From positions 1,308,451 to 1,372,450 of the forward strand of contig CAJINV010000010.1 of NCBI GenBank assembly GCA_905178155.1: a stretch of DNA of 64,000 nt, read 5' to 3'. The notes under the pieces are model-generated. The model did not search any database, had not been told where the DNA came from, and was given only the letters and a program-made list of their open reading frames with translations. Source of the stretch: Amoebophrya sp. A120. Taxonomy: Eukaryota > Protista > Dinoflagellata. Position 1 is the first letter of the stretch, and each line of letters begins with the position of its first letter. Shown piece by piece: positions 27,250-60,368 of the stretch. A program made the translations under genes and the position numbers.

Positions 27250-30200
27250 ATGCGCAACCCCACATCAAGCACGTCCACCGGCAATCCCCGCCTCGGCGGG
27301 GACGATGACGAGGGGCCGATCCTTGTGGACCGCACCGAACATGTCATCGACGAAACCACAACTGCGCTGGAAGACGAGGAGCTGCTGCTCCAGCAGGAGC
27401 GAGAAGAGCGCGAGCAAGAGGAATTGTTTCAGAAACAGCGCTCGGCGGACAGGGGCAGTAGAACTGGTGGCGCACCAGCCAAAGGCCCAGGAGGTACTAC
27501 CAGTGCTTCGGCCTCCAGAGAGTCCTCGAAGCAGTTTCCTACTGGTGGTAGTGCTGTCGGACTCGGGCAGATTTCAGATGGAGACAGTCAGCAGCAGCAG
27601 TTGCAGCAACTATCTCAATCTGGGTCTCCCACAGGGGCACCGGATCACCACCCTCTGCTTGATGGGCAAATAAAACTGACCCAGCAGCCGCTTTCCGACC
27701 ACGATTCAGGTGAGTCTACCACTTCCGAAGACCATTTAAACGATGTTTTTGAAATCCGGGATTTCACCGCCGTGTCGCCGCTGGAAAAACTCTCTCGGGA
27801 GCTGCAACTGATCGTGAAAGGCTGGAGCAGCCACTTCAAATCTACCTCGGGATGTTTGACGTCCGTGGTAGATTGCCGGGATACCGCACAGTGTTTGAAA
27901 TTGTTGGAGCAGATGCGGAGAAATAGTGGCGGAACTTTTAGTGCCGCTGGCGGGAAAACATCAGCAAACATCGCGAAAACAAATCAAAATCTTCCATCGC
28001 CCGCGGCTTCAGTTCTAATCGACCACCAGGAAAAGGAGTTTAAAGCTTTGACCCTGCAATTCCAGCAAGCGCTGCAGTTTTACAGCGAGCACAAGTCGTC
28101 GCAGGGCCGGATGATCGCGAGATTTCGGTTCAACAACATGAAATACCACCTACATGTGTACTACGGCCGCCCGGTACCGCTGAACGTGACGGATGAGCTG
28201 TTTCATCGGTTTACGAATCATATAGCTGGTGGTGGTGGTGGTCTTCGTCTTGTTGTTGGCGGCGGGCCCACAACGACAGGCGCTGCTAAGTCGTCCACTG
28301 GTATAATCGCTGCTAGCTCTAGCGCAACATCAACTGCCCCCGCCTTTCCACCGGTCCTGAAAGAGCTCGCGGACCTACTCGCGCAGGAGCAAAAATTTCC
28401 CGTAAAGTGCCACCCGAATACCCGGAGATTCGGCGTCCGGCAGTTCATCATGGTGACCCGGGAGCGGGTACCAAATGCAAAAATGTCTGGGTCTGGAAGG
28501 TTGGAACTTGTGATGCTAACTTTGGAGTCCAAAAAAATTTGTATTGCATGACCAGCAAGAGGAGTCTAGTTTGTGCTACGCGGCGGGGAGGGCGTTTGTC
28601 ATGCGGAGTAGGCATCAGCAAGCCCTCTAAAAATCTGTGATGCTAGGGCGTGCATTACAGACATCCTGGGTCATGCAAAATATGCATGACAAGTCTCAGA
28701 ATTATCTTCCAGACCCAGACACTTTTGCAATCCATAGAGGGAGTCGCAGGAAATTTCAAACGACTCCGCGAACTTTCTCCTGTCCGCGATGCTGATTGCG
28801 TATGAACGCCTCAGGTTTGAAATCCTGAAAGTGGAAATGATTTGTAATGCAAAAAAACGATTCCAGTTGAAGTGGCATTTGTAGTCGGCGCATGACAAAT
28901 TTCCCGGGCACTTAAAGCGTGTCTGTCATGCAGCTCAAGGCAAGGGGGGGCCCTTCTGTCGTGCTAAGCAGCACTCCAATTCTTGACCCCTAGCAGGACA
29001 ATAGTCAGCCTCCATTGCGTTCTCTGCAATACAGTCTTTTTTGCGTCGCATTTCATGCATCACAAATCATTTCCACTTTGAGGATTTCCATTCTGAGGCT
29101 TTCATATTGCGGTGCGAGCGGCGTTTCCGACCGCCGGGTTCAAGAGCCTGGAGTGCGGGAGGAAGGCAAGGGGTGCAGTACAACTAGCTGCGTCGAGTAG
29201 TCGTGGCCCCGGGGCGAAAGCACTGAATAAGAATAATATTAAAGCGGGTAGAACAAGAACATCTACATCTTCTTCAACATCACCCGCATCAGGAACTACG
29301 ACTATTGCAGTCCCTACTACTTCTTCTTTCTCCGACACTGCCCTGGACATCCCCTGTTTTGTGAACCAAAACCCGGGTGAGGTATGGATTGCAAATATGT
29401 CTGGGTCTGGAAGATTGTCAGCTTTGTCATGCATATTGGGCACGAGGACCCATGACGCCTGTAATGAATGACCTAGCATCACAGAATTTCAGAGGGCTTT
29501 CTGATGCCTTTTCCGCATGAGAAATGCCTTCTCCGCATAGCACAGACTGGACTCCTCTTGCATACAAATGCTTCGCGGGTCCAAAGATAGCATCACAAGT
29601 TGCAACCTTCCAGACCCAGACATAATTGCGATGCATATGAGGGGGTAAATGGCAAAACGATCGGCGAGGGGTTCTTCCTTCTCCCCGACAAGAAGACGGC
29701 TTTGCGTCGGAATTTTCTCTCCTGCGCGCGGTCGAGTAGACACGTAGACCCGCTACTGAAGGACCTACCCGGATTGCTGATCTTCTGGGAAAGTTTGAGA
29801 AATAAGGTGCCGAGGGAGGTCAATTTGAAGTACAGAAAGGACTGCACTTGGACGAAGGCGGAGCATTTGACAGAGCTCTTTCACGCTTGTTCTCGTACGG
29901 ATGTTTCTGGTGCAGCTACGGTTGCATCTTCATCTACTGCTGCATTTATGTTCCCGCAACTGCAGCAACCAGTTGAAAACTATACAGGGAAGACCTCCAA
30001 ATCTCTTACCCCAAGGGAATTAGTCCGCGTCCAGCACGGCCCGCAGATTCGCGCCCGGTTTGTGTACCTTATGGCGCTCTCAACTGTTACATTCTCAACT
30101 GTTACTTACATGAATTCGTGATGCAAGAATGGCAACAGTAAAAGGGGCTAGCTTGCTGCTTTCGCATCACAGATTTGGCACAGATTTAGGCGCTGTTGAG

Positions 30201-35845: not shown

Positions 35846-36613
35846 TGAAGTAGAGGAAGAGCTGCAGCGAGACACAGATGAATTCGTCCAGATGTGAATG
35901 TGATGAGTTATGATCAAGACAAGGCACCTGCTTGAACTCGACGGAGATGATCATGACAGCGAGTTTCATTTTGAAAGCACGAGACCCATCAACATCCGTG
36001 CGACTTGTTCTTCGCGCGCACTTCTTGTGTGGGGACTACAATCAGAGGTGAGTCGATGCGGCGATGCAGATCATTATAGCGCAGCGATGCGAAAACAAGA
36101 TATCCTCGGTAGTTCCACATCTAGTACCCCGGATGAGCAGTGGTCTTTGCATTTGCTCAGTTGTTGGTCTTTTTTTCGTGTATGCGAAGATCTTGTGCGA
36201 GGACTCTAGTGACCTAGAGATGAACAAGAAGAAGAATGCACAGCACACGATTGTCTGATGAGCAGCGCGGTCTTGTTGTGCAGCCGTACTCAACTTCTGA
36301 TCTCCTTTTCGTATATGATTTGTTTCCTCGTCTTCCTTTTCAGGACAATGTCAAGGAGAAGCATTCGCTTGTAGCTGTTAGCTCCTTTGTTCCGCTTAAA
36401 AAAACAAAAATCATTTATGACCATTGTGGTACTTTTTATTGCTGTTGCAAGTGCAACTCATCCCGAAGTAGCTTCGTATGTGTTTAGTACAAAATTTTTC
36501 TATATCGTATCTACCAAAATTATCACTAACAAAAAGAGAGAGTAATATCTAACACAAGATGAAGAGAAACTCAAGAGAAGATCATTCGGAAAAATAAAAT
36601 ATCGAACAGAAAA

Positions 36614-39600
36614 ATGATGGAAAGAGAACGAATTTTTACGCGAAAAGCGCTGACCGGCCTCTTCCTCCTCCGGTTTCTTGCGGTCCACGAAATAGTTTCT
36701 CCCAGTGCAGCTACGGCAGCTGCCTCGGCAAGTGGAAAGAAAACAACCACTGATGAAGAGACTGGCGGAACAAGTAGAACCAAACGGAAATGGGACGAAG
36801 AAGCTGAAGTAGATCCACCTTACGCAGCAAGAACTTCAACTTCTGACGAGCAGCATCATTATCATACCGAATTCCAATTTTTACCAACTATCTCTAGTGC
36901 AGCGGCTCCTGCGGTGGGGGAACCCGCACCGGCACCATGGTTTTTTGATCAGCCTGATTATCGCGGCCGGTTAGGTAGCTGTAACAACTTCCACTACGTC
37001 GAAAAAGGAGCGACTGATTTTTTGCAGCAAGAAGCCCCTGCGCAGTTCCTGCAAGCCGAGCAACCGCCCCAGCGTGGAAGACCCTCATCTGATGTCTCGA
37101 CGACATTTTTGTACCAAAGAACACGACCAGTGCAGCAGCTGGAGCTGCCCAGCAGCAGTAGCTCAAGCTCTAGCTGCGCTCTCTCGACGACGCGAATAAA
37201 GGAAGATCCACCGCGGCCAGCATCTCACCTTCATCATCCTTATTTGAGCCGTGGACAACATAATTCCACTTCTACGGGGGGGACGAGGTCCTTGTCGGGG
37301 ACGACATCGACGTCGTCCCCCGGGACCACCATGAGCTTCCTAGCTGGAGGTTTTGAACAAAGCACGTTAGGCATGGGTCCCAGCGTTGAAGTTGTTCATG
37401 ATCTACAGTGCGATTTAGACTCTGACACCAAGAGAAACTACCGAGATCATATATTACTGCTGCCAGCGACATCAACTACGGAAGCTTCGTCCACGAGGCC
37501 GGGCGGAGAAGGAGAAGTTTCGGAGACAGTAGGAGGATATTCTAGCGGGAGTGGTAGTTTAGCTACTCTGCTGCATAATCAGGGGATCTACAACATTCTT
37601 GGTGGTGAAAATAATGCGAGGCAGATGAACACGACGACTTTGCGCGGCGAACATCACGGTGTAAAACGATCCGCACTTGTTCTGAAGAGTTGCATTCGTA
37701 AAAATCGTAGCTCCGGCGCTCGAAGCTCCGTTGACTGCATTGGCGGCGAAACTTCGCTCGCTGCGACACCCTTGAAGATGTCGACGTCCCAGCACAAGGA
37801 AGTGGTAGGCGAAGAAGTAGATGACTTATCTACTGCAGGAACAAGAATGCGAGTAAGAACTACTGACCCGCACCACGACCACGAGCAGAGCCGCGCTGAC
37901 CTAGGGTCAAAAGTACTCAAAATCGCTGGGATTTTTTTTGAATTAAAAAATTTTTTTTCCAATGATTCCATACCCGGAGCAGTGGCCGTCCGAGGAAGTT
38001 GAGAGCCGACGGTGGGGAGTGCAGTGGCATATGGTTTAGAGCGGGGGCGAATTCGTCTTGAAGAGTGGGTTTGGGGCTACTGCCTCGCAGCCGGCGCAAA
38101 GAAACTGTAACAGGAGAAAAGCCGGCACACTGTTCAGGGCTTGAGCCTGGCCACTACAAAACAACACCAGCCTCGCCGGGCGAAGCCGCTGGGCCTGGCC
38201 TGAAACGGCCCGGAGTTTGGCTACTGTCTGCGCTGCGGCGTGTTTCCAGGCCGCGCCATACTACAAGGCGCGCCAGTGGAGTTTTTGTGTCAGATCTCTC
38301 TGCTGCGCGTCTGCATGAAAAGAACGTTGCGACGGTGCCACACGACAGGGCCGCCGGCTTTCGTCCGCGCCAGCCCTCACTCGCGGTCCCAGTTTGGGAC
38401 TGGCGCAGCGAAATTGCCTGTACTCCGCGGGGGGGCAAGAGCTGTTTTTCGTGTGTTGTAGATTGTTCCTTTTTTTTGTTCCGTCTGGGTCTACTACTTC
38501 GCCGCCCGATGGTATACCCGACGCGGGCTTGCAAATCTCCGCTGACGCCGGATTGCAAATCTTCGCTGTCCGAGTTCTCATCTCCGCGCCGATCCCCTGT
38601 TCGGATCCCCGGTTCTGATCCATTTTCTATTTGAAATTGGATCAGAACAGGGGATCAGAACAGGGGATCAAAACAAGGGATCAGAACAGGGGATCAGAAC
38701 AGGGGATCAGAACAGGGGACCCGAACAGGGGATCCGGAACCGGCTTGGGAAACGGACATCAAAATAGCACATTTGTGTCGCGGTTTCGGATTTGGTTTTT
38801 TTGCAGCTTGCTGGCCAGCCGCGGTGCCTGGCCTGGCTGATTCTGGCCCGGGGGCCTTCTGCTCGGGCTTCTCGTGTTTTGGAAATTGTCAGCAATCTGC
38901 CATAGCAATAGCGGCGAATCTGGTCGCAGGGGTCATGTTGCTGAAACATGTGCGCCAGTGCCGGCACGCTTTACATACGGGCGCTGCGGCAGCTCGCCGC
39001 CGACCGCATGCGGCGGCTTTTTCCAAAAGGCGTTTGCGGACTTGCGTCGGGCTTGATGCTTTTGAATATGAGTGAAGAGAAGTTGCGTGAAGAGCTTTGC
39101 ATTGCATAGGACAGGGTGGGAGGGTGGTTTGTGTGTGATGATCAGAGCTGACACATGTTGGCAACTAGGCCTCACCCAAGTGCTTTCTTGCTCTTCGTCC
39201 GAGAGCGAAGACGAGCACAAACTCCGCCGGGCATTCTCATGGCTCGGCGCTAACCCTCCGCTTCAGCCACCGAGCAATCTTTCTTTCCGTCTCGGCGCGC
39301 TTGCCGCCTCAAAAAAATTTCAAAAATAAAAAAATCCCAGCGTTTTTGAACGTTTTTGAACACTGGTCATGCGCTAGGGGCCTGCCCAACTTGAGAACTA
39401 CTGACCCGCGCCACGACCACGAGCAGAGCCGCGCTGGCTCGCCATCAAGTAGCCAAGAGAACTATAGTACTTGCAGCAACTAGAGCCAAACCTGGAACCG
39501 AACAAGGCTCAAAGAAGGCTACTTGCTTTATTTCTGAAATCTGCATGCTACTGTGGTGCAGACTAGGCTCAAACCTGGGCCAAGAAGGATCAAATCTCTA

Positions 39601-41728
39601 GAGATGACCTTTTTTTTCCTAATTTTCCTTGGTGAATCACCACGCTCCTGCGAAAAAAGATTGATAACGATTAGGGCGAACGCCTCTAGAGCTCAAAAAC
39701 CTGTAGAGCTCAATCGCTAGAGCTGAATCTCTACAGCTGTTTGGTGATGTTCTAGAGCCTAAGCTCTACAGCTTCCGCCTATAGCGAGCACCTACAGCTC
39801 GACAGCCAAAAGGCTTTTTTATCGTTTCTCACACTAATCAGCTGCAGCTACCCGGCCGGTCTGTTCCTGTTGCCCCTGGTGCTTGCCTAGGAAGCCCAAC
39901 ACCGGGAGCACAGAAGCAACGAACCAAACGCGGTGGGGCTGGGGCTAATTCATCAGAAACAACCAGCCGCATGGCTGTTGCCTCCATGCTGTGAGGCGTG
40001 GCCGCCGGTGCCGAGAGTAAAACTCAAAAACATAAACAGCACTGGCAGGCGTGCCTCTTACTTAGATTTGTTGGGAGGCAACCACCAGCAGCTGCGTGGT
40101 CCTGCTGCTTGCTACAGGGTATCGGGCCAAGTAGCCTCGCCGAAGGGCAGCCCGGATGGAAAAGCATGCACACAACAAGCCCAAGACCATACGCAAGAGA
40201 AACTTTCGGCGCACAGCGGCAGGCTGATGCGAAGGCAACAGATGTGAGCCGCCGCAGAGGTTACGTCCGTGCAGCGGCGCAGGTGCCTTCGGCAGGTTGT
40301 AGCGTTTTCTTTCCACGCCGGGCGGCCACCTGCTACGACGAGTACCAACGCGACGGCCAGGAGCCGCACCTAAAAACAAAAACGCACTTGCGGGCCGCAA
40401 AGGCTCGCTGGCGTTCTCGCCCTAGCTGCCTGCGCTTGCTGGGTAGCTGAAGTAGAAGGAGGGGAGGCCGCCCGGCGCGGGTCTGCTTTCCATTTCCTAG
40501 AAGGCAGACGGCACAACTACGGTGAGGCGCACCAAGCGGAAGCGCGTGCCCTTATCGACCTCTACCATACCTGACCCGGCTTTTGGCACTACAGAGGCCG
40601 GACGGATCTGGCGCGCTAGGCGTTGGGCTGCAGTTGGTGGGCCGGTCGCTCTGCTGGCCGCCTTTTCTTATTCATTTTATGTTCCTGGCTACGCGTGCTC
40701 TTCCTTTTTGTTTTTGTACTTTGTTGCCATCAAGCTGTTTGCCATCATCGCGCGGCGTTAGTGCGTCGGCTGCCCTTCCGGGAACAGTCAGCCCCAAAGA
40801 AAGCACGCTCCAGCTCTTCGGCCAAGCCTCTTCGAACTGTTTCTAGTTGCTGCAGTAGCAGTACTGCTTTTCTATTGTTATGCGCAGATCCCCGCACCAC
40901 GACCACGAGCAGAGCCGCGCTGGCTCGCCATCAAGTACTGCTTCTACTTGTGCCTCTAGAAGGTCCTCTTCCTCACCACGAGAAAAAAAGGTGAGGTTCA
41001 ACGTAGAAGAAGAAGTACAGGATCACCTTCCCGCCGAAGCAGATGAATCACAAACTTGTGCTGCCGGAGCTCCTGCAACAGTTGCGAAAATTAACAGCTG
41101 CGGAAGTAGAACTTTTCCATCCTACGTAGTTTCGTCTTCCTCTTCTTCTGCTTCTAGCAGTTGGGCTGGCGTACTGGCAGGTAGTGGAAGTGAACAAGGT
41201 AGTACTAGTGGAACAGGTGGAGAGAATGAGAACAACCAAGAAACAACCATGTCGCTGTCGAGGATGCAACAAGCATCGCCAACATCATCCGTGTCGTTTC
41301 TTTCTTCGTCCAGAAGTAGTACTACTAAGACCAATACTTCTTCTACTCCTGCTGCTTTTTCCTATTCTGGTTTCCCGCTAAGTTGTCCAGACGTCGATCA
41401 TGCGCGGATCGTTCAAGAAGAAAGCAACCAACGCCTCCTTCTGGCTTCTTTGCAGGATATCACCGTGAAAAATCCAGCTTATGTGAGACCGGAAAAGACC
41501 ATGGCGGAGCGACGCAGGAAGGCGGAGGAAACAGCGGAACAGGAGAAAAAACGGAACGCGATGCTGCAGCAACTCCAGCAGCAGGAATCAGAGGCACAGG
41601 AACACCAATCGTCCCATCCGGTTCTGTCGCCGATGGGAATGCTTCTGCATCCCATGATTGAGATGAAAGATCAGGACCTTTTTTTGAAAGCTGCGCTGGA
41701 AATGGACGGACCAATGCATGGTGCGTGA
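36614..41728 (+). CDS. Orphan Ser/Thr-rich protein with hydrophobic N-terminus, interrupted by a ~3-kb double insertion (possibly a pseudogene)
   Basis: ORFs 36614-38002 and 40880-41728 both encode PHHDHEQSRA; removing 37899-40922 joins them in frame. Confidence 0.55.
37899..39393. mobile_element. Non-coding 1.5-kb insert with subterminal inverted repeats, flanked by a 43-bp direct repeat
   Basis: IR CGCTGGGATTTTTTT (~37924) / AAAAAAATCCCAGCG (~39328); direct repeat at 37856-37898 and 39394-39436. Confidence 0.7.
38590..38740. repeat. ~14-bp GATCAGAACAGGGG tandem array with inverted copies to its left
   Basis: About 7 copies at 38639-38735; reverse-complement copies at ~38591-38621. Confidence 0.85.
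39452..40890. mobile_element. Non-coding 1.4-kb insert flanked by a 47-bp direct repeat
   Basis: 13-bp IR TGCAGCAACTAGA at 39472-39484 and 40842-40854; direct repeat at 39405-39451 and 40891-40937. Confidence 0.65.
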
Positions 41729-42659
41729 TACTATTTTTTCAGGAACAAGAACGAGCCGCGCAGGAGATGGTGACCACACATCAGATAGTACTACATCGTC
41801 TGGAGGCAGTGGAAGTGCCAGTTGCTGTTGCAGCTACATTGTGATAATTTTCGGAGTTACAGGAGGGTGAGGTTCTCGTATCCATTGAAGATTATAATCT
41901 AAAAAGTCAATGAGTTTATTGGGAGGACTCATCAAGAAGAAGAACTGAAGATAGACCGATGGACAGCATTGCTGTCAGTTTGCAGGACTATCCATCGTGG
42001 TTGATAGAAATAAAAGAAAGCTCCCGGCTTCCAGAATGGATTTAATAAGAAAGGATTTCATATTTTCAATTTCAATGACATTGACATGTAAAGCACGACC
42101 ACGACGAACATCACCTCCAATACACCGTAAAAAAAAAAAAAAATGCTAGTCGTCTACTACGTACGATGGAGCTCCTGACGGAAGTGTTGTCATTTTTGTA
42201 ATGTGTTGTTTGGTCATCCTCCAGTTCCAGTTGTCTCGCAGTTCCTCCTTTCCTATTTCGATCATTCCGCACGTAGATCACGAGGCAAACTAAACAGCGA
42301 AAAAAGTTGTATCATCTACTTCGGTCAAATCTAGGGCTTGCTGCATTTTTTTATTTGTGGTACTTACATGACAGATGTTGAGATCAGAACAATTACAATA
42401 GTCTTGTACCAACTATAGATTGTTGACAAACTGAACCGTGCGAAAGAGGACGAAGCGGAGGATCTAGGAAGTAGATTCAAACTACGTCAAGTAGACAACA
42501 CCATCGCAGTATGATGGACGTGCTGCCAAAAGATCCATACTAAACCACTTACATACCATTTTTTTTTTTCTGAAGAAGAAGGGACATTTTGCTGGGAAGA
42601 TGAAGATGAAGATGGAGCTAGACTTCTACCGACCAGCTGCATGGCCGACGACCTTATAA

Positions 42660-43627
42660 TTACAGCACTTTATAGGTTAGGGGCTAGGGACCTTTAGGGA
42701 CCCTTAGGGGCTTAGGGACCTGAGGTCCAGAAAGCAGCCTAAAACGAACTCTAAAACGCATGGTATGCTCGCAAAATGGCCGACCATTTTACCCCCCCCC
42801 CCATTTGGGCCCCCCCAGAGTGCTTCGGCGGCTTCGGGGCTTCGGGGTCCCTTGCCGTCACTTGCCAACAAGTGTGGGCTCTTGATGGTCGAATATAGTT
42901 CGTTAGCCGATAGCGGATGCCACGGACGAGTGGCATCTAGGGGGCCAAAAATTCCCGCATGCGTGTCCTCCACGCGGGCGGCCCCTGGGGCGCTGCTGTC
43001 GTTATCCATCAGGGAAAGTTGAAGCGGGCACTTCGATTTTCCCTCGATGAGGGAAAGTTGAAATGGCCAACTCAAATTTTCTTCGATGAGGGAAAGTTGA
43101 ACTTCAATTTTCCTTCGATGATGGAAAGTTGAAGTGCCCATTTCAAATTTCCTTCGGTCATGGAAAGTTGAAGCGGCCACTTCGAATTTCCTTCGATGAG
43201 GGAAAGTTGCAGCGGCCATTTCAAATTTCCTTCGATGGGGGAAGGTTGAAGCGGTCGCGTCGATTTTCCTTCGATGAGGGAAATGCGAAGTGGCCACTTC
43301 AAATTTCCTTCGAAGAGGGACATTTGAAGTGGCCATCTTAAATTTCCTTGCTTCGATGAGGGAAAGTTGAAATGGCAACTGCGAACTTCCTTTGATGAGG
43401 GAGCGTTGAAGTTAGTGGGCACTTCGATTTTCCTTCGATGGGGGAAAGTTGAAGGGGCCATTTCAAATTTCCTTCGATGGGGGAAAGTTGAAGTGGCCGC
43501 TTCAAATGTCCTTCGATGTGCGGGCGCGCGGTGCTCGTTTGCCTTCGAATCGATGCAACGCCATTGACTGCGTATGAAGTGAGTGAATGCGCGCGCGCAG
43601 CGCGCGCGCGAAATTTTTTTTGGTTCT
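42660..43627. mobile_element. ~1-kb insert with a telomere-like left end and a 39-bp satellite, lying between direct repeats
   Basis: Direct repeat ATGAAGATGGAGCTAGACTTCTACCGACCAGCTGCAT at 42606 and 43628. Confidence 0.55.
43007..43518. repeat. 39-bp palindromic minisatellite, about 13 copies
   Basis: Unit CGATGAGGGAAAGTTGAAGTGGCCACTTCAAATTTCCTT; appears as a 13-aa repeat in ORF 42704-43378. Confidence 0.9.
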
Positions 43628-43664
43628 ATGAAGATGGAGCTAGACTTCTACCGACCAGCTGCAT

Positions 43665-44937
43665 TTACGGTAGCGAAAACTGTCCCCACTACCCCGGTTT
43701 TCCCCAAATCAAAATTTTTTTTTTGAAGTGATGGAATAGCGTTGCCGCCGGCTCCACAACCTAGCCGGTCGGTGTCCGCCATTGGCTCTCCTTCGCAGAT
43801 GGCCTCTGTGGCTGCTATGTAAGCAGAGAAGCTAGCAGGACAACGACGTGGCCAAGGCACTGCACAACCGAACAGGGCGCCAAGATGTGTCAAGGTGTGT
43901 AGCTGCTTCGGTGCTGGCTGCGTGTGGGCTACTGCAACGCGGGACCGCCCCGGTGGCCTTGTTTGTGTGGTCGCGGGCGCGGCGCTGGGGAAGAATGCGT
44001 TGCGCAGTTCCCCCGGACGAAGCGCCCGGACTCTGTTAACGACAATTGAAGAGACCGGGCGCCCAGTCTCCGTTGAAGAGCCCACCGGGGCGCGGCGCTG
44101 CCCTCGGGGGCTGGGCGCCTGGAAGCCCCGCGCGGGCCCGCCCGCGGCCTCGCCCGGCCATGACCCTGGCGAAGGCCCAAATGCCCGCCGGGCCGCGAAG
44201 GCCGCGCCCAGGTTCTGGGACGTCGGCCTCTCCGTTTCCCTGGAGGTCGTGCATGCGTACCTTTTCGGGGGGCTTTCCGGTGCTCGTTTTGATGGCCGAA
44301 AGCCCGTATACAGGTGCTTAGGACCGAAATCCCCAGCATACGTTTTTTTTCTTGCCAGCGTGTGCGAGCATGTACCCAGGGAAACGGTTCCGGCAAGTCC
44401 AAGCTGGAGAAGACAGGCCTTGTCAAATAAGGGGCTTCGGATCCAGCCTGGGCGGCGGGAGCCTGGGCGGACCCTGGTCCTTTTCCTCAAAAACCGGGCC
44501 CGCCCCCTGGCCGCCCTCGGGGCGGCAAAGTGGTTAGGCTTTAGGACTCCGGGCGCAGCGGGTCCTGCGCGACAGAGCTGCTGGCGTATGCGCGCCCCTT
44601 GTTACGCGCAGCGCCAATCTTAGAGAGGCGCAAGGGGGTCCGCCGCGGAGAAAGTCGGCGAGTTGCTCTGCCATGAAGGGTAGGCAGGCAGCTGCGCCCG
44701 GAGTCCGGATCGCAGTGGCCTGTCCTGCGTTGCGCGCATATTTGCCGAGGGGCCGCGAGCGTAATCATGGCGCGCCGTTAGCTAGATAATATCTTTCGTT
44801 ACATTAAGCAGCACACCGAGGGGGGCGGGCGTCTCGGTCTGGCCGTTCGCGGCGTAGGCCGCCAACGCAGGGCCCACCCTGCTCACAGTTGAATCGAAAA
44901 AAAAATTTTGCTTTTGGGGAAAACCGGGGTATATGGG
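43665..44937. mobile_element. GC-rich non-autonomous TIR element between 37-bp direct repeats
   Basis: TIR TACCCCGGTTTTCCCCAAA(T)CAAAATTTTT at ~43690 and inverted at ~44897-44931; direct repeat at 43628-43664 and 44939-44975. Confidence 0.75.
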
Positions 44938-47823
44938 GATGAAGATGGAGCTAGACTTCTACCGACCAGCTGCATGGCCGACGAGCTCATAAGCCAGTAG
45001 CAGCATTGCAGCGAGCGTGGGCGTATTTTTCGCAACGGATGAAGATCTCAGAATCAGATTAGCATTAGTGCCGCGTGGGGAACAAGACAGTTCGGATCAT
45101 GTTATCGTCCAGATTTTTGCGTCGATTTTTGATATCTTCGCGACACTTTTCACATTTGTACTAGATGTGCAAAATGTCGCAGAAAACGAGCAGCGCGGGT
45201 CGGAAGAGCAGAAAACTGATCTCATTATTCATTTGCAGCGCTAGGCTACAGCGCAGTAGCGAAATGTAAAAAGCAAAAAACGGGCTGGCAGCTGGTGGAT
45301 CCGTTCAACGCGCTATTTTTCTATTTGCTTGTAGTTGAGCTATGTGGTCTACCGCTTCTTCATCGACCACGACGAGGATCCTACTACATTTATTCCAGAT
45401 AGAATTTTGCGGGAAGCGAAATTTCATCGTTGTGACACAACAAAACCTGATTGACAGAGACGCTGCCCGTGAGCAGGTTCTTCTGAATAAAGTAGGACCG
45501 CGGCATTGGACAAGAAAGGCAATATTCAGAAACTGAAAGAATATAGTGTAGTAGAAAACTGACTCTCACAATTTCAACATCGGACACAGACCCTGTCTGA
45601 CTAAGAGATAGAACAATTCATCCACTACTTTTGATAGGGGTGATTGCTACGATGAGCGTACGGATACTTCACGCAGGAGTCTTATGTATAGAAAAATACG
45701 TAAATAAGAACCAGAATTATAGACAAGAGCACAAAGTCTATACAAAGCTACGATAACAACGGTAGTCGTAGTGAAGTATGACCCTTTGTCAGCATTGAAC
45801 TTGACCTCACGTCAGAAAGTCGTGGAATGTAAAGGATAGATATGAGGCCAGTTCGGATAGTCTAGGCTTTCATCAATGAAAATTTGTCGTGATAATTTTC
45901 AGCAAACGCACAAGAAGCAAAAGCCGAAGTAAGTAATCCAGGGTGAACGGCGATAAAAAAAGGTAGAAGGGCTTCTGGCGCTAGTCGTGTTTACCACGTA
46001 AGCACATATTGTAAAAAAGCCCAAGTAGTCCTCCTCTACCCGCGAGTAGCCTGTTGGACGACTGTATTTCGGTCTAGCTCTTTGTCTTTCCTCGATTTCT
46101 TGGACGACTTATTTTTAAGATGGTAAAACGAAAAACGGACCACAAAGAAGACAATTTTTGTTTTTCGAAAGCGGACTAGATACCAAGTTTGTGGTAGTAG
46201 CTTGAGAAGCATCAATCTTTACACTTTTTCTTGAGCAGGAATGATGATGACAGCTCAGATGATGTGCTGGTGACTTTTTCTGAGTAGCAACATTTATTTC
46301 CTTTGTTTAGCGGTTGTAAGTAGATAGACTTTCATTATGGTTTTGTGACGACGTAGATATTCAAAAAAGCGGACGACGACGAGACCTGAATGCCTTATAC
46401 GACATCTTTCACACATCATAGTCATACTTTACAACGACACGCTGCTACGCAGCTGCCTGGCAGAGCGCAGCTTCAATAGAGAGCGGCAAAAAATTCTCAC
46501 CAGGTGGAGGTCACCGCAATACCTATTGCCAGAGCTAGACGACCAGCGCTGCCTTCCTCAAGTTGTGAAGGTGGGCGCGAGCAGCTAGTTGTCGTGGTAG
46601 AAGTACTACTATAACGGTTTCTATTATTGGAAAAGCAGGTGCGCGCGCGGGTGCGCTAGCTGTACGAAATCCAAAACTAGCGAGAAATATATCGAAGCGT
46701 TTTATTCAGCACATTCTCGTACATACCTACCACTGAGAACACTTTGACGTGCTGGCATAGCTGCACGATAACAGACCACACGGACCACGCGACCTGTATG
46801 TTTACAAGTCCTGCTTTGCGGCCGAAGATCAAGATTTAAAAAAAAAGAACGATGTAAAAAACGAAGACCTAACAACAGCGAGAACCTGCTTCGAACCAAG
46901 GTAAGTAACAAGATTCGAAATTTATCGTTTCTAGTTCTAGGCGGCAGATGAAGCGGCCGAGTTTTATTTTAGCCATTCAACATCAACATTCATAGTACAC
47001 ACCGACACTCAACATTCATAGTACACACCTACAATTCGACACTCACAACTCGCTTGTTCTGGGCAGCAGAGTCTATCTGTCGTGTCAAACAAGATCTAGA
47101 GGATCTGTTCTTCGCGGCAGATATTGACTTTGCGTGCTAAGGCAAAGCAATAGTACCATTCATATTTTAATACCCAACACAACCCGACCCAACCCAACCC
47201 CAAGAGGCACGCAGCCCACCTCGCCCAAGTAGTAGGTACCTCAATTTTTCAAAACTACCCGATACAACTACGCGTACGCATTGATTCTTTGACTATCACA
47301 AGCTGTTTCTAAATTCATATATACTTTTTTTTTTCTACTTTCACACACCAAAACCGCTCCGGCTGATTACTATTTAATTATCTGCGCTTTAAGAAAGCAC
47401 CCTTCAACATCAAGGGCCTTTTCCTTTATCTTCATCTTTGTTTCGCCTTTGATCAAACACCAGCCGCAAAGGCAGCAGACCTTGGCATTCGGTCAACATT
47501 GTTTTTATTTTCGAAAATTTCTTCTAACAAATTTCATTTTTTTTTTCGACCTGATTTTTAAGGATCCACTTTTTTTTTCAACCAAGTAGAGCGTTGGCTG
47601 TACCACGTTCGAAAATTGTGTATGATCCAGCCCTTCTTGATGATGATCTAGATTTTGCCTGTCTTCTCGACTGTTTCGATTATTATCTTTGAATAACCTG
47701 TCAAGGCTGTAGTACTCATCCAATACCAAAAATTTTCAATATAGGTAACCCGTTCTCTCCGAAAAAATACGGATACGGGGTGGAAGGTTCTTGTTTCCAG
47801 TTTCGCTGTACGAATTTGTGTTC

Positions 47824-50800
47824 ATGATGATCAACTTTTGGTTCTTTTCCTCCGTCGCTCACGCGACAGGAGCCAGCAGCAGCGTTATTTCATCCAGTAC
47901 AACTAGAGCCCCCGCCTACAACACGAGTCCGAGACTCGTAGAAAACGGGGCCGCACCACCAGCAGCAGCACGGTCTCGCTCCTCCAAGACCACATTACGG
48001 CGCATGGGAAAAAGCAGAGGCTCCATGTTGAATTTGGAAGCAGCGGGATGGCACAATAACCTCGGAGCAGGCGGGATGATTAACAACAACTCCGGTAGTA
48101 CTAGTCAAGATCTTCAAGAAATAAGACAAGCTCATCTACCCTCCTCACCTGGGACGTTTACGATGGAACAAATAGGCCCCTCCACTTCATCTGGTGCGGC
48201 GCGGCCGGAAGTTGATGGTGCTGCATCAACTTCAGCAGCGCGGGGAACAGCTTCTGGGGTCGTATTGACCAGCACGCCTACTTCTCCACATCAAGATCCT
48301 GTCGCTTTCCAGCCCCAGAAGAAGTCTCGTCAGCAGCAGAATCTTGATATGATAGTGCACGACTCCTCCTCCACCCTCTCGTTTGTGTTGCATGAACAGC
48401 AACACAAGCGCTGACAAAGATGCAGCTTTTGCATGAGAAATTCCTGGAGGATTTTAGTGCTGTTTTGGATTCCGGATTCTGTCATGCAAACAGTGCTAAC
48501 AGGCATAGGGTGGACTTGGAATTTTGCATGACAAATGAGGGGGAGGGGGAGTTGTGCACTTTCATACTTGAGCGGGCAAATCGACGAAACGTTCCCGGTG
48601 TCCCAAAGCCAGGGGCTCCAATTAATATCGGCGTACAACTACAGGCAGGGCAGTCACGACCCTTCGTGTCCGCAACTTTTCTTCCGATAGGAGATGATGG
48701 TGGGACGACAGCACCCGCTGGTAATACTAATAGCGGAGCGGCACGTCAACCATCGGCTAATTATCATGCGGGTGACGGTGGTGCATATGATTATCCGAAA
48801 AGTGATCCCACCGCTCTTGCTGCTGGTGATTTGGCACACGCACAAGGAAGTGGCGCTGCGCAACAAAGCACCGATCCGATAACTTCACCCAGTGGGGGTG
48901 AACCACGACGAAATACAGGGCCAGCGGCCAGCAGCGGAGCTACTTCAGCAGCCATGCCGCTGAGTCTTGAACAGTGGTGGGATCAGACTACGAGGGACAA
49001 AGACGACACGCTGGCCTCGTCTATCGTGCGGGCTAGAGTATGCAGTGCAAAAGTATCGTACTCGTCGTATAAATGCATTACAAATTTTCTCAGCATGAGA
49101 AATGTAATGCTGATTTACCATAGCATAAGAAGAAGATCTGTAATGCATGATTCTTGCAATTACTACGAGCAGTACGATACTTTTGCACAGGATACAGAGA
49201 GCAGCGCAGCAACATTGGCGGGTCATCGGGGACAGGATCTTCTGCGGGGACCATTGGAAGTACGAACGATGTTGTGGGCGGAGTCTTGTCTCCCCAACAG
49301 AGTTCTGGGGGCGGGTACGCAGCGCTGCAAAGTGGCCAACCCGTGCAGACGTCCTCGCAATCTGCTTTCAGCAACAGCGGTCTTCATGCCCAAGAAATAA
49401 GTCCGATGCAGCGCCGCAATTCTGTCAGCGGACGCCTTTTTGGAGCAGGACAAAATGGAGCATCTACTTCATCTCCATCGCCAACGTCGGTCTTCAACAA
49501 CCACGGCGTCTTCCAGAAACATTTTCATCGGCAGCAAGTGATGTCGAGAAGCGTGGGCAACAGTCCGGCCGCTGGGATGAGATCGGCACAGCAGATGAAG
49601 AACGTAGGACCACAGGCGCAACGACTGTATAGTACAGACTCAAACGACCGTCTTGGGGGCCGCAGTAGAGGAGCTGACTCGACGACAATGCGCCACGTTG
49701 ATGTGACACCACATAGTACTTTAACTGATCAACATCACCTCACCATGAAAGCCTCGAGCGGCCGTGGGCGATCGCTTACGCAGGGCCGCTCCTCCAGGGC
49801 GGGCGCGGGAACAACTACCGGTGGAGCTGGTGCTACGGGGAATATTAACATGCGTGGAAGAGGAAGTTGCGCACAGCAAAATCAACACTATCACCATGCT
49901 CCTGCGTCTCAATACTCCGGATCCTCCTGCAGTCCTGGCGTGACCTCTCCGTTCGCGCCCCACGGGCGCGGCCACGGGCTCATTACCAGAACTCTGTACG
50001 AAAGTCACTTGCAGCAACATCAGCAACAGCTGTACGAGCAGGAGCAGGAAGATGCAAGAAGAAGAGCATTATACATCAACCCATACGGTCGCCCACCAGC
50101 ACCTTACGGACAATCCCCCTCCCCGCCCTCCGATAATATGTCGCAGTCCCTTCCGCGGACGATTGGAACGATCAGCAGTTTTTTGGGTGGCGAAAGCCGC
50201 GCCCCGTCAGGTTGTCGACACGTAAGCAGCTGCGGGAGCATATCTTCTCCGGTGGAGCATGATATTGTGGTGGACGAAGTAGACGATCCGTTTCCGTACA
50301 GCTGCAGGAGGTCTTGTTCCCGTGAGGACCACCCGCTGGGCAGAAGCATGTCCGCGACGTCCCGAGAGGCTGGTGCTGGACCACGGGGGGGCAGCTCTAC
50401 AACTTCCAGAGAAGAAGTAGAAGACGTCGCTTTTGACCTCCGGCCCACCTCTCTTGATGCCCCTGCTGCTGCTCGTCTCGCACGGGCGTCAGCATCTTAC
50501 CATTACCTGATGAGCGGCGGTGATTTGTCGGACGATATTAACAACATTCCCGACGTCGAGAGAGGGAACTCGTCAAGCAATCTATGCATTGCCAAAGTAT
50601 CGTGCGTAGTATGAATCGCATGACAACAAATTACTTTATAAATAGTCTCAAGAAGAAACTTGGAATTTCTCATTCAGGTACGACTACGAGGCCAGATTTG
50701 TAATGCATGACTGCAATTCAATACACGATTGCGATACTTTTGCAGAGGATGCGACTGGTTCCAACAACTGCTCACCTATGGTCCAGGAACTCCATTATCA

Positions 50801-54667: not shown

Positions 54668-55195
54668 TGTTAGTGGACTTGAGAACACTCGCACACACTT
54701 ACACACGTTTGCTCCACTGAGCTCGTTATCAACAGCAGTTCAATGAATTCTCTCAATTGCAAGAAAGCAAGCAAGTGACGCAAGTCTCTTGCTACGTTAC
54801 ATCCTGTAGGTTCAATTCATCCAAATTCATCACATTCATATGGACCAAACCTGGTCAGAGTCAAGTGGCCAAACAGCAAGGGAGTCCACTCCTCAACCTG
54901 CTCAGATTGGTGCTCGACCCTGGTGGGAGTCAAGTCCCCCAGGGTTACCATTCTGAACGTCTGGACCGAGCTGAGTCCATTCATTTCACTACGATCCTGA
55001 TGGCTTTGCCTTCGTAGTATTTGGGGGATTCGCGGAACATGGTGAAGAGTTTCCTTTAGGATCTAGATAGATTCTGACCATTTCCCTAAGGATCTAGCTA
55101 GTTCAGGTCATTCAGAGCTGTCATTTCATTGAGGAACAGGCGTCATTTGGGGCGATCGTGTTACGCGTGTGTGGGATCGATTTCCATGACCAACA
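54668..55195 (-). repeat. 3' LTR
   Basis: About 6 mismatches by eye to 60369-60896. Confidence 0.95.
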
Positions 55196-55288
55196 CCCCT
55201 CCTCAATCGCTGCGGCGGTGGTGCTAACCTGGATAACGTCCTACCGCACTCCCCTCCTGAACGCGCTGTGGTAAACTAGCTACCCTCT

Positions 55289-58200
55289 CTAGAAACCAAA
55301 ATAAATCGAATAAGTATAGCCTACTTTAGCCTTGCCCTTGTGATTCCCCTCTATAAACGTTTCTAAATCATCCTCATCGTCAGAGGAGTCACAAATAAAA
55401 GACTTAGGGTCGGGGTTATCAATATGGTGCAAGAGTAAGCGTCTCTGCGGCGCACTACACTCGAGCTTCGTAAGACCGTCTGCCTTCATTAGGTAGGTCG
55501 GGCAGAACATGATCTGGCTCGCTGCGTCTCTCACGCGGAGATATCGCAGTGCGTAGCGCCTCGATTTCGGTTTGTTGTCTGTGCTCTTAGCTGTAGTTGT
55601 CGCGGACTGGTTGCCGATCCACAATATGGCATCACCCAGGGAGGGAGATAAGCCATTCTGCTTTTCCACCATGACAGTGGGTAGAGGTTTGAAGAACTCT
55701 GTTTGTAAAGTCATTTTGCTCGCTAAGCACAATAGTGTCGGAAGCAGCTATATACTCCGCCTCCGCCGTGGAGTACGCCCTCACGGTCTGCCGGTTGCTA
55801 CGCCAACAGATCGGGAAGCCGCGGAAGTACATAACGCTACCACTAGTGCTTCGCATGGTCTTGCAGCAGTTCGCAAAACTAGCATCCGAAAACAGATTCA
55901 CATCAGGCAAGTCTCTCCCTTCGGGCAGTAGCTTGCTGTAGATTCTGTTAAATTCTTCCTCAATTTCCGGACTATACGACAGACCCTGCTCTTTCGTTGT
56001 CAGTAGATACTCCAGAATCTTCTTACAGGCGTTTACGACAGGCCGAGTCGCCGGCTTGCCCACATATCTGGCGACAGTGGCAACCGGGACAACAATGTCT
56101 ACCCTGCAGGTGGTTGCAACCCACTGCAGAGAGCCAGCGACCTCTCGAAGGGGAAAACCTTCAATGACTTTAGCTCCTTCAACTTCTTTAGCGAGTTCAG
56201 ACTCGTCGAGGTTTGGCGAGTGGACCGGCTTGCCCGCTTCTGAGACGTGGAATTTCTTACAAATCTTGGATATGTACTCTGTCATCACGATCCTAGCGGT
56301 TCGTAGATTCCAGTTGTAGTACACTATTGACCCGAGGAAGTCGAACTTCTTGGACACAGAGTTAAACTCCGGAACAAGCTCGACGTCGATCATGCGCCCC
56401 TTGACGTGGTGCAAGATCTCCGCAAGTTTTCCAGCCAACTCGGACCCAGTCGGAGGACCTGTGATAAGATTATCGTCGACATACGCTGCCAACTTCAGAA
56501 ACTTCCCAGGGTATTCCAAGCTCGGTTTCTTCCACAGACCTGGCGCAGAGGGACAGGGTTCCCAGCCTAGCTTGGTCAGTACTTCCTCATACTTCTTATG
56601 CCAGAGCCTGGGGGCGTCTTTCAAGCCGTAAAGCGCTTTCTTGAGCTTGGCGATCTCCACGCCGTGCTTTTTCGCCCAGATGGGTGGCAAGCGGCAGAAG
56701 GCATCGCGATCAAGTAAGGCATTGAGAAACGCACTATCAAGGTCGAGCGGGGTCACATCGTCACCGTCTGCGGCTGCAGCGGCTAGAAGTAACCTGTTAG
56801 CGGCATGGGACACAACAGGAGCGAAAGTGTCCAGCTCGCCCGAACGATCAAGATTACCGAGTGCTACTGCTCGCGCTTTCTTCGTACCGTCACGCTTCTC
56901 GGTAAGAAGGATAGCAATAGGCAAAACCTGCTTTGCGGTCGCTAGCTCCTCGTCAGTAGCTGGCTCCCACACTTTATAGGCTTCAAGTCTACAATCTTCC
57001 TTGTTGGTTGCTGCGTTCCATTCGACTGAGTCTTTGCAACGAGCAGGATCCAACTTGGCCGATGTAGTCAAGTAACACTGGACGTCAAGGAATTCCTCGC
57101 CTTCCTCTCTATCATCCTGTGCTGTTATTGCTGCGGCAAAGGCACTAGCGTCCTTTCTCAATTCTGCGAGCTCTTTCTTAGTACGTCTCGCGCGCTTTGT
57201 CTTGTCCTTTCTCCCCTTGGGACGGCCACGACCTCGCGGCTTGGAGTTGCGGTTGCCAGCCACAATCCTTGCCGGAGACGGACTCGTCTTTCTTGGACTA
57301 GATAAGCTGCTGTGAGTGGGGTGATCGTCCAGATTCCCCTCCTCAGGTTTAACACCTTCAGGCTCGGGATGTATCTGGCCCGGATCATCTTCCCTATCCA
57401 AACTTTCAACCACCAACGTCTCTTCAGGACCGTCAGGCTGCCTACCAGTGTGCTCCGAGACATCCACCCCCAGCCGGTGCACAGCCCTTTTGATCAGACC
57501 GAAACACGGGAGAGATGGCGCACACGACGCTCCACTAGGTAGGGCCTCGATTGCGTCACACTCGACAGAGATACCCTTGGAGTTAGGAGCTAGGTCTTCA
57601 ATATTCTTCACGAGGTACTCCTCACGGAACTTGACGTCGATGGTAGAACACTCCATCCAACGATGTCCCGCGGCGGACCGGCCGTCCGTGACATACGTCC
57701 CAACCCGCCAGCCCGAAGACTTAGGACAAAGGCCGAGAAATACACCACGACGAAATGGCGCGGCCAGCTTTGGAGCAACCACCTCTACTCCCCCCTCAGG
57801 AGCTTCATGAGCTTCGCCTTTCTTGACTTGTTCACGAAAATAAACGAGACAACCAAAACGCCTTAGCATCCTTGTGCCAACTTTTGAGCTGTTTCTTCCA
57901 GTTCTCTCATCCAAAATCTCTGCAGGAGTCTTTCCGTCGTACTCAGGCACTTTGCTATACTTATGCGGAAGGCGGTCCCAGCATGCTGCAGCGTACTCGA
58001 CCGAGTAGCACCACAGACGCTTGCCCACGTTCACCAACATCGCACGCACAGCGCCGAATATGGTCCGCGTAAAGCGTTCGCAGGTTCCGTTCTGCTCTGG
58101 GTTGTGCTCTGGGTTGTAGGGAACCGCAGGAGCATCACCGACCCGCAGCGATTGCATGACCTTGGTCATGGATTCACTGCCCAGAGCTGGCTCATTGTCC

Positions 58201-59123
58201 CAACGGACGAACCATGCCGCTTTGTCCTCGAGGGTCAAAGCGTAGCTCTGGCGAATGCCTTTTGTTACTTCTTCCAAAACCTCAACGCAGTCACTTTTCA
58301 GCTTAAGAGGGACACAGAGACACTTCTTGACGGCATCACAGATGACCACAAGCACGCAGGTGCGTGACCGAATCGATACAGGTTTAATACCTACCGCGAA
58401 ATCCGTCGCTAGTAGTTTCAATGGTTCAGGTTTGTAGTTACTAGTGTCGCGCTCTTTTGCGTGAGAGCTTCTTGCGCCCTTCGCTTTGTCGCATTCGGGA
58501 CACTGGACACTAAGACCATCTACATGAAAGCGCCCGAATCTTCTATGTTGTTCTAGACGCGTAAGATGACAGCTAGCAATACTTTCTTCGATTGTAATGC
58601 ATGCAATATCCTCCGCAGTGTCTCTAGTCGCCTGACCCCGGAGGCCCATCACGAAAAGATCACACCCAAGGACTGGGAGGGTCAACCTCTCGTGGTTCTT
58701 GATTGGTAGCATCTGACCGGATTCCCTGTTGACGAGAGAACCGCCAGAGCTGTTGAAGTTCAGATCCCACCCACGATCACTGAGATTGTCCTCACCGAGC
58801 CACGGAAGAATGCGATCAATATCTCTTGGCAAATGTTTAAAATAGACGCCATAGGGCAAACCTAGAGCGTTTTCCTTCAGTTTTCCTACAAAGCCATCAC
58901 GAGCCCCGGCCGTGCCGTTGATGCGACAGACGTTGCTCGAGATGTCAATAAAATCCGATTTGTGTCTAGATAAATACTTGTTTGCACATGAATCGACCAA
59001 GCTCACTTCGTCCTTGGTCTGTGCAGTAAAACAGCTAGAAGAATCTACATCAGAATCCCCTAAATTCTCGAAATTTAGCACACAACTACCATGCTCCGAG
59101 ATATAAACTCCTCCGTGATCTGG
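55289..59123 (-). pseudogene. pol: copia pol (protease, integrase, RT, RNase H) with a frameshift in RNase H near 55700
   Basis: LVDSCA, HRRFG..CPEC, LATDF/WDNE/QNGTCER, KKALYGLKDAPRLW, YVDD, FSDASFA, STAEAEY; the RNase H end (NQSA...KADGLTK) is in a different frame, ORF 55289-55732. Confidence 0.88.
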
Positions 59124-60311
59124 TCAGGCTGGTCCTTGCCAGACCCAACCGCCCTGCTTTCCACCGGCTCCTTGCCCTTGATTCTGGTTGTTCATCTGGT
59201 TCTGGTTCACCGGCGGACACCACTGCGGCTGCTGGTTTCCCCAGGCACCACCCCACTGACCTTTCCCTTGATTGTTAGGATTCCAGCGGCAGCGGTCCGC
59301 CTTATGGTTTTCCTTGCCACAGATCCAGCATTTGGGTTTGGTCACAGTGTTGTAGGGAGTGCTCTGGTTCCGACCAGTCTTGCCACCACCTTTCTGGCCA
59401 CTTCCACCCTTAGTGTTAGACTTCGGGGGCAGGCCATGGGCAGCCAGGACACTCGCTTCGGTCTGCTTGCGTAGTTTGGCTTTCATGCGTTTCAAGGCTT
59501 TCGCCGAGAACACCTTGCCAGAAGCAGCATTCTGACCATCATCAGCGGAGTCCGGCTCCTCGTCATCGTCGTCATTTTTCTGACGCTTATTTCCCTTCTT
59601 GTTCTTCTTCGACTTCTCCTCAACGACCGGGAAGGCCTTGCCGAAGGACGGGTTCGCAATCTTGTGCGACCCCTCCTTGACCAACTGCGCGAGCTTCTTC
59701 TCGAGACGGTTCCCGATCTCCTGCAAGGTGATGCGATCGGACTCGTCCACGCAGCGGTCGATGGTCTGGCGGAAGGCCGACGCAAACATCTTGGGCAACT
59801 TGTCCAGAATGTTCTTGACATGCTGATCTTCAGCCGGACGCCCGGGCTCCGGGACGTAGACACTCGGCGCCATCTCCATCAAGTCGTGGATCTGGGCCAG
59901 GAACGTCGGAGCATCCTTCGGCGCGTCGCGGTTGTCGAAATGCATGGCGTCGATCGAGGAGGTCTTGATCTGCTGCTGGTCACGGGATGCAACATTGAAG
60001 CGACCCACATCACGAACACGCATGAACAACTGCGCAGCGTCGTCGTTGATGTAGTGCTGACTGTTGACCCACGTGGACACGGACCCGGTGCGCGACTTGT
60101 AGATGGCATCCCTCAGGTCGCGCCACTTCTCCCGGATCGCATTATTGGCAGTATTGTTCGCCTGCGGAATCCCCGGAGGGTTACCAGCAAGACGATTATC
60201 CCAATACTCCTGGAGCCCGAGGCGAGAAACCTCGTTCGTGACCCCGCGATGCCAGGCGCGCCAGTCCTGCGCGCTGGACAGCTTCGCCGTCAATTTCGCC
60301 TCTTGGCCCAT
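59124..60311 (-). CDS. gag: copia Gag with CCHC zinc knuckle
   Basis: CWICGKENHKADRC; ATG at 60311. Confidence 0.88.
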   Translation of the reverse strand: MGQEAKLTAKLSSAQDWRAWHRGVTNEVSRLGLQEYWDNRLAGNPPGIPQANNTANNAIREKWRDLRDAIYKSRTGSVSTWVNSQHYINDDAAQLFMRVRDVGRFNVASRDQQQIKTSSIDAMHFDNRDAPKDAPTFLAQIHDLMEMAPSVYVPEPGRPAEDQHVKNILDKLPKMFASAFRQTIDRCVDESDRITLQEIGNRLEKKLAQLVKEGSHKIANPSFGKAFPVVEEKSKKNKKGNKRQKNDDDDEEPDSADDGQNAASGKVFSAKALKRMKAKLRKQTEASVLAAHGLPPKSNTKGGSGQKGGGKTGRNQSTPYNTVTKPKCWICGKENHKADRCRWNPNNQGKGQWGGAWGNQQPQWCPPVNQNQMNNQNQGQGAGGKQGGWVWQGPA

Positions 60312-60368
60312 CTTCAATCTAACTTATCTGACTAGAAGAGCCGGCTTGAGTCTCAAGGCGTAGCGTAG

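Follow-up and report, generated by a model that had tools for sequence, protein, structure and literature searches.

A 64-kb stretch of DNA from the marine parasitic dinoflagellate Amoebophrya sp. A120 (the window, to whose positions all coordinates refer) contains a locus in which three direct copies of a 37-bp sequence alternate with two inserts, referred to as A and B. The repeat is host DNA and not a transposon end, and each of the two inserts has an intact left end and a clipped right end that overlaps the start of the following repeat by 1-3 nt. A and B belong to two multicopy, non-coding families of TA-ended inverted-repeat elements of A120, of which they are clipped copies. In the reading favored here, each of them may quite possibly have entered the chromosome through a single end, the insertion then being completed by host repair.

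Host repeats and clipped inserts at the A/B locus

The 37-bp repeat is identical in its three copies (42606-42642, 43628-43664, and 44939-44975; 0 mismatches), and the outer copies are identical over 47 bp (42605-42651 and 44938-44984), in agreement with the original prediction, although the 47th base of the outer match is the last G of B and lies outside the middle repeat. Insert A separates copies 1 and 2 (42652-43627, 976 bp, GC 0.51), and insert B separates copies 2 and 3 (43665-44938, 1274 bp, GC 0.63). By chance, the longest exact direct repeat is expected to be 13-17 bp (30 order-4 Markov simulations of the window, spacing 150-4000 bp). No folding of the repeat itself was detected (z 0.62). 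The 37-mer had been suspected of being the end of a dispersed high-copy element; however, it occurs only three times in the window, and the summed contig depth is 108 over repeat copy 3 and 25 in the flanks, far below the value of 1621 at the real left end of B. Features of this locus and of a neighboring twin locus are listed in Table 1.

Table 1. Positions of the repeats, inserts, and host gene at the A/B locus and the twin locus
Feature	Position	Strand	Remarks
Host direct repeat copy 1	42606..42651	.	46 bp; reaches 42654 with 1 mismatch versus copy 3
Insert A, non-autonomous TA-ended element	42655..43627	+	left terminus present; at least 69 nt lost on the right, including that terminus
Internal satellite of A, 39 bp x13, internally palindromic	43011..43518	.	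also in L001
GC hairpin near clipped end of A	43589..43609	.	kept in L001; fold z -2.27 for 43575-43670
Host direct repeat copy 2	43628..43664	.	37 bp; first 3 nt are microhomology with the continuation of other A copies
Insert B, GC-rich non-autonomous element with terminal inverted repeats	43666..44938	+	left terminus intact; ~17 nt of right terminal inverted repeat missing
Host direct repeat copy 3	44939..44984	.	46 bp; runs on into unique downstream DNA
Twin locus host gene	36614..41728	+	codes for P0001, an annotated 734-aa protein without a Pfam family; inserts C and D lie in the gene
Twin repeat copy 1	37856..37898	.	43 bp, coding
Twin insert C	37902..39393	+	begins with TAG; a transcript contig omits 1475 nt, and the exon retains another 17 nt
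Twin repeat copy 2	39394..39451	.	58 bp, two overlapping duplications; coding mini-exon
Twin insert D	39450..40890	+	TAG start seen in another copy; 1435-nt intron fits annotated protein
Twin repeat copy 3	40891..40937	.	47 bp, coding

The boundaries of the inserts were defined by contigs of a DNA run (X1, possibly the source sample of the window itself) and of RNA type (X3, X4, X5, and X6; X3 is regarded as RNA by its predicted type and patchy cover). Two X5 contigs share the window sequence from 43665/43666 with differing flanks, and therefore the B family starts at TACGG, at 43666; a third X5 contig continues beyond 44931 into the reverse complement of the left end of B. Within B, the inverted repeat (43684-43726 and 44894-44939) is 89% identical over 46 columns. 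Of the nucleotides lost at the right terminus of B, 8 are directly shown by these contigs and the rest follow from the symmetry of the terminal inverted repeats (TIRs). B joins repeat copy 3 via one shared base, or two if the flank of copy 1 is the reference. The original description of a satellite-bearing insert and a GC-rich element with ~30-bp TIRs accordingly holds for the inserts and not for the extent of the TIRs, the left TIR of B being 18 nt longer and its right partner clipped. A reading of 19 nt at the left of B as filler was rejected because those bases are the family terminus. The longest open reading frame (ORF) of B (317 aa) has no homologue among 7995 candidates of 174-555 aa, and no Pfam domains were found in two B ORFs. 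A B-related family without 43949-44200 (250 nt, with 5 other letters instead) is present at higher X1 depth, indicating that B has deletion relatives.

The left terminus of A is TAT at 42655, with which the duplication reaches 49 bp with 1 mismatch; this end is placed by the TA rule and by L001, the one locus returned by one metagenome scan, and none of the A120 contigs displayed marks it. L001 is a relative of A with the same satellite and hairpin and with inverted repeats at both ends, and its left end aligns with that of A. Its right terminus lies 128 nt past a conserved T-run, whereas in A the repeat begins 6 nt past the T-run. Furthermore, a 179-bp contig of X1, at ~6x the depth of the flanks, follows A to 43630, as do contigs of X4, X5, and X6; all extend 53-147 nt beyond this position into a TIR-like end, and the last 3 bases common to these contigs and A are the first 3 of repeat copy 2 (3-nt microhomology). 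Further contigs depart from A at 43606 and 43621, representing several right-hand contexts of the A module. No flanking repeat of at least 9 bp was found round the relative in L001, which occupies L001:2221-2960, has no visible 5-bp duplication, and borders on its right side on what appears to be a further small hairpin element. Viral contigs contained 0 matches to an A motif or a B motif.

A TA terminus and TIRs are present in both families: the B family has the TACGG start and, in other copies, a full right TIR, and the A family has the TAT start and L001 as a relative with complete TIRs. Their multicopy nature is indicated by several diverged contigs and by summed contig depths of 150-1600 at the element ends versus ~25 in the flanks, where depth is not equivalent to copy number. 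Invasive non-canonical introners with short inverted repeats and direct repeats of 3-5 nt have been described in the A120 genome (PMC7789003; this and the other papers cited, apart from Dataset S2 of PMC12130899, are used for the portions available). Among 18 short TAT...ATA introners of the window, chosen by hand from repeat scans, the 5-bp target site duplication (TSD) is exact in 14, with 1 mismatch in 3 and 2 mismatches in 1. A and B depart from this pattern of a 5-bp TSD and two retained ends in their 37- and 46-49-bp duplications and their missing right ends. Short introners of this kind, at least 18 in number and of several families, are spread across 867-53501, and some are nested or paired (28476-29637, 20182-22020). 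Dataset S2 of PMC12130899 lists 58 A120 families; the TSDs that it reports span 2-11 bp, and one family, number 38, is annotated as Ginger with a 5-bp TSD and TA/TA termini. This survey examined intron borders and may have been blind to long duplications. Five element motifs are absent from 13 searched supplement files of the same paper, and the inserts have no Rfam match.

No open frame of more than 75 aa crosses the junction of the in-silico empty site at the A/B locus in any of the 6 frames. Contigs of X3 and X4 do not cover 42172-43005 or 43840-48000, those of X5 and X6 cover only family-shared parts of 43530-45030, and the raw RNA run X9 yielded 1 read on the locus; taken together, these results are not evidence of silence.

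Misassembly had also been raised as a possible source of the structure. The upstream/repeat, B/repeat, and repeat/downstream junctions are contained in X1 contigs with 0 differences, whereas the A-then-B order and the junction of A with repeat copy 2 come from the assembly, no contig displayed spanning a whole repeat copy. The X1 contigs break at 42634, 44955, and 44967, where the 31-mer graph of the assembled junctions predicts, and unique X1 contigs start or stop 29-30 bases into the repeats. An assembly artefact is extremely improbable. It would gain from the missing full-length contig, from the membership of both inserts in repeat families, and from a B-then-A order, which is equally compatible with the 31-mer graph and would account for the extra G; however, three junction types are present in X1 contigs, the A120 assembly was built from Illumina and Nanopore reads (PMC7789003), and at the twin locus the extra repeat copies are found in an annotated protein and in transcript-type contigs.

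The twin locus and a footprint recurring among four insertions

The same architecture with a different repeat and different inserts had been noted under 2 kb away, and this is borne out: 1668 bp separate the end of the twin locus (37856-40937) from the A/B locus downstream, and the two have no sequence in common (blast). A frame of the window is 100% identical to annotated A120 protein P0001, which retains all three repeats, corresponds to introns of 1475 and 1435 nt, and is lengthened by 38 residues. Splicing of C is represented by one X3 contig, which joins 37900 to 39376, with the splice donor 1 nt before the TA terminus, and splicing of D is read via the annotated protein. Exact removal restoring the gene (a 713-aa open frame after removing the inserts and one duplicate each) was considered and replaced, since the annotated protein keeps all three repeats. 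C begins 3 nt from the repeat, and its right end is compatible with a complete element and 17 extra nt, with a left-clipped element, or with an element having its own 6-bp repeat. Another copy of D begins at 39450 (TAG), and another passes 40895 after 5 bases common to the repeat; these D-family boundaries are loose ends in X4 and X1, one contig each, with 8 loose letters. No exact source longer than 8 nt exists within 36000-46000 for the 16-17 extra nt found on the right side of C and D. We propose that splicing of the element as a non-canonical intron, with the duplicate left in the mRNA, makes a coding insertion tolerated. In addition, contigs of X3 and X4 begin inside the right part of C (39140 and 39127, respectively) at a depth like that of the upstream exon, and the depth of the downstream exon is 2-4x that of the upstream exon, possibly reflecting an additional transcript that begins, or is trans-spliced, inside C (39127-39451), although contig depth is a poor measure. 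A 13-bp satellite with an inverted copy is located inside C (38591-38734).

In the four long-repeat insertions, which lie in 7 kb, the left end is at or no more than 3 nt from the TA terminus in 4/4, and the right end is clipped and joined by microhomology in 3/4, i.e., wherever another copy is visible (A, B, and D). The microhomology comprises 3 nt in A, 1-2 nt in B, and 5 nt in D, with a naive chance of 1/64 for A and 1/1024 for D. The duplication lengths are unequal within a locus, being 46-49 versus 37 bp at the A/B locus and 43 versus 45-47 bp at the twin. Placement of the second insert within 100 bp of the first has p ~0.003 per locus under uniform placement, as a rough estimate. The shared border, stacking, one polarity, and clustering favor a coupled or hotspot process. 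The common polarity, the clipped ends, and the stacking support the original prediction that a mechanism, and not an accident, is at work; by contrast, a fixed repeat-and-insert array is contradicted by the unequal lengths and by the identity of the inserts as clipped ordinary transposon copies. The GC-rich blocks at 2201-3301, 17101-18301, and 23501-25001 have no long flanking repeats.

Proposed one-ended insertion and alternative routes

An integrase-like transposase could plausibly act on TA-ended elements that make 5-bp duplications. For A and B, such an enzyme (Ginger/IS3EU-type), acting in trans, would have joined the left end to the target; the free right 3′ end would have been trimmed and would have found its priming site at a few matching bases, 37-49 nt left of the join, and the primed end would have copied the target back to the join and been sealed, duplicating 37-49 bp instead of the usual 5 bp. 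Because copy 1 is full length, A would have been inserted before B, which would then have entered the right-hand duplicate of A; placement of the second insert in the duplicate of the first would need a local hotspot or a coupled event. The occurrence of the one-ended footprint in unrelated families suggests a host step, and since 1-2 mismatches are found in 4/18 short-introner TSDs, it is not unusual that A and B each show one mismatch in their final 5 bp. In one-ended integration of human immunodeficiency virus type 1 (HIV-1) and avian sarcoma-leukosis virus (ASLV), one end is normal and the other truncated with short homology, a long host duplication is formed, and the 3′ end acts as primer (PMC5041404). 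A, B, and D are alike in all but the primer, which is part of the model; however, the viral products were induced by drugs or mutants in cell culture, carry duplications of hundreds to thousands of bp, and include deletions (PMC5041404), whereas A and B are natural, fixed TIR elements with 37-49-bp duplications in stacked pairs.

Several observations weigh against one-ended insertion. No transposase gene was found in or tied to A or B (Pfam on ORFs, homologue search), and the tested ORFs of A, B, C, and D gave no Pfam hit to an integrase-type DDE transposase. The model does not explain why the second insert sits inside the duplicate of the first at both loci. Both duplications at the A/B locus start at the same base (+/-1), while those at the twin start 11 bp apart, and the clipped end of B matches 2 nt of the copy 1 flank but only 1 nt of the copy 2 flank, its expected partner; under sequential independent events, the shared start and the copy 1 match are thus a coincidence. 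Furthermore, all four insertions have the same polarity (p=1/8), although the model predicts either polarity and also deletions, and all four events, which involve 1-1.5-kb elements, are confined to 7 kb, the remaining 57 kb of the window containing no such event. The clipped end of C could not be assigned, every microhomology rests on one contig or contig class, and the retroviral duplications are usually of the larger size given above, not narrowly 37-49 bp (PMC5041404).

The identical final structure would be produced if a normal insertion with a 5-bp TSD were followed by an abortive excision break and chew-back, after which the host side re-primed at the left TSD, copied 37-49 bp of the left flank, and was rejoined by microhomology. 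The last 5 bp of the long repeats can indeed be read as a normal TSD (4/5 match in A and B, 5/5 in D). This reworking is nevertheless unlikely, as it requires an extra template switch ~1 kb away and leaves the stacking, and the contrast of 4/4 long inserts with 0/18 short ones, unexplained. A single repair event per locus, in which a break captured two excised elements serially and synthesis returned to the same target stretch between them, would yield the adjacency, the one polarity, the identical repeats, and the shared left border in one step, and the appending of several templates to one 3′ end has a precedent in aberrant integration (PMC5041404). We regard such an event as improbable, since the twin duplications start 11 bp apart, B begins exactly at its terminus without clear microhomology, and two free elements would have to meet at one break twice in 7 kb. 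Quite unlikely as well is retroposition of spliced-out introner RNA by a LINE- (long interspersed nuclear element) or Penelope-type enzyme, with microhomology priming near a trimmed 3′ end, copying to the 5′ splice end, and a second nick 37-49 bp off. Non-LTR (long terminal repeat) elements make long, variable duplications (Dualen, R9: PMC9977147) and can mobilize DNA-transposon RNA (PMC11195612), and A120 families classed as non-LTR exist (PMC12130899 Dataset S2). Sequences of A, B, and D are present in RNA-type contigs from other loci, 0-3 extra nt stand at the left junctions, the splice donor of C adjoins its TA terminus, and repeated use of one nick site would account for the shared border. 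The usual pattern of target-primed reverse transcription is, however, the opposite one, with an intact 3′ end and a truncated 5′ end. Moreover, neither end of A or B has a poly(A) or repeat tail, although tail-less intron RNA is still compatible, and no such enzyme was identified here.

Footprints very close to that of A and B have been published for one-ended rolling-circle copying by HUH enzymes, with a precise start, a fuzzy stop, and a variable long duplication. The Helitron2 elements CRe-1/2/3 of Chlamydomonas have one intact and one truncated end and duplications of 7-19, up to 44, 50, 93 bp and more (PMC3627910), and Replitron-1, also from Chlamydomonas, has a precise left end and a fuzzy right end (PMC10288648). 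Like these, the present inserts are eukaryotic DNA elements in which one end is precise while the other is truncated or fuzzy, and their long duplications vary in length; in addition, A ends 18 nt after the GC hairpin, and the inverted repeats of C and D are asymmetric. Helitron2 and Replitron-1 differ in using HUH enzymes, in lacking symmetric TIRs, and in having a fixed target motif, and stacking in the duplicate is not described in the available portions of the two papers (PMC3627910, PMC10288648). Complete relatives of A (L001) and B have the symmetric TIRs typical of DDE elements, and the four left junctions differ in their bases and have no common target dinucleotide, which makes this route very unlikely.

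Scarcely probable is an integrase dedicated to long staggered cuts that would target the duplicated site again, so that arrays grow (with IS481EU-like 4+10n spacing or in a CRISPR-like manner). The repeat-insert-repeat-insert-repeat layout does occur twice, and 37 and 46-49 bp approximate 3 and 4 helical turns added to 5 bp, but 43 bp fits no turn, the lengths vary within a locus, and concerted integration keeps both ends, in contrast to the clipping and microhomology seen in A, B, and D. IS481EU elements of parabasalids are likewise integrase-related eukaryotic TIR transposons with longer-than-usual duplications, in this case of 4, 15, or 25 bp within one family, but retain both ends (PMC10045372); A and B have neither both termini nor a duplication of these lengths. 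Among prokaryotic systems, tens of bp of target are duplicated round the insert by IS1634/IS1549 and in CRISPR spacer acquisition (in part PMC2869330). No adjacent integrase gene was found among the 19 ORFs scanned, and there is no Rfam hit. CRISPR arrays have a constant repeat length and involve Cas1-Cas2; here the repeat lengths are 46/37/46 and 43/58/47.

With regard to the host genome itself, the inserts resemble Amoebophrya introners (PMC7789003, PMC12130899) in their TA termini, inverted repeats, lack of a transposase, and, at the twin locus, apparent non-canonical splicing. They are unlike those reported, with direct repeats of 3-8 nt (PMC7789003) or 2-11 nt (PMC12130899), in their 37-49-bp duplications, one clipped end, and a duplicate lying in an exon. 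Published evidence suggests that the footprint is known in retroviruses and Helitron2/Replitron and that its occurrence in Amoebophrya or in TIR introners is apparently unreported. In literature searches that covered few subscription papers, neither long duplications nor clipped ends were found described for Amoebophrya or for TIR introners, nor were stacking or exonised duplicates, and the available portions of PMC3636483 and 10.1101/2021.04.23.441226 contain no usable duplication lengths.

Significance and other features of the window

How the tens of thousands of non-canonical introners of Amoebophrya move is an open question (PMC7789003). Half-finished insertions such as these expose an intermediate and thereby bear on which end is joined first and on whether the donor is DNA or RNA. 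The twin locus illustrates a route by which introner insertion lengthens a protein, with three copies of a 14-19-residue motif. A more far-reaching possibility, which we consider rather unlikely, is a recurrent pathway in Amoebophrya by which mobile DNA, possibly reverse-transcribed spliced-out introners, is inserted with a 40-50-bp duplication and re-targets the duplicate, so that arrays grow; because splicing would remove the inserts while exons kept the duplicates, internal protein repeats and new mini-exons would be manufactured genome-wide. This possibility draws on the features noted above as favoring a coupled or hotspot process. If true, such a pathway would be a direct engine of the rapid protein evolution of this lineage. 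If the four events are instead a local cluster of repair accidents, their value is modest, as a natural eukaryotic case of the retrovirus/Helitron footprint.

Elsewhere in the window, two tandem paralogous genes (3894-9700 and 10975-16400, tRNA-synthetase-like by eye) have introners at different sites and thus provide natural empty sites. A Copia-type LTR retrotransposon occupies 54668-60896 on the minus strand, with 528-bp LTRs differing by 6 mismatches, a 5-bp target duplication, and an RVT_2 hit. GC-rich blocks (up to 72%) without flanking repeats include, besides the three mentioned above, 61301-62201; the three blocks inspected are intergenic and may be promoter islands or decayed elements. 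At the end of the window, a 14-bp tandem array with an inverted partner (63811-64000) is possibly the start of another element.

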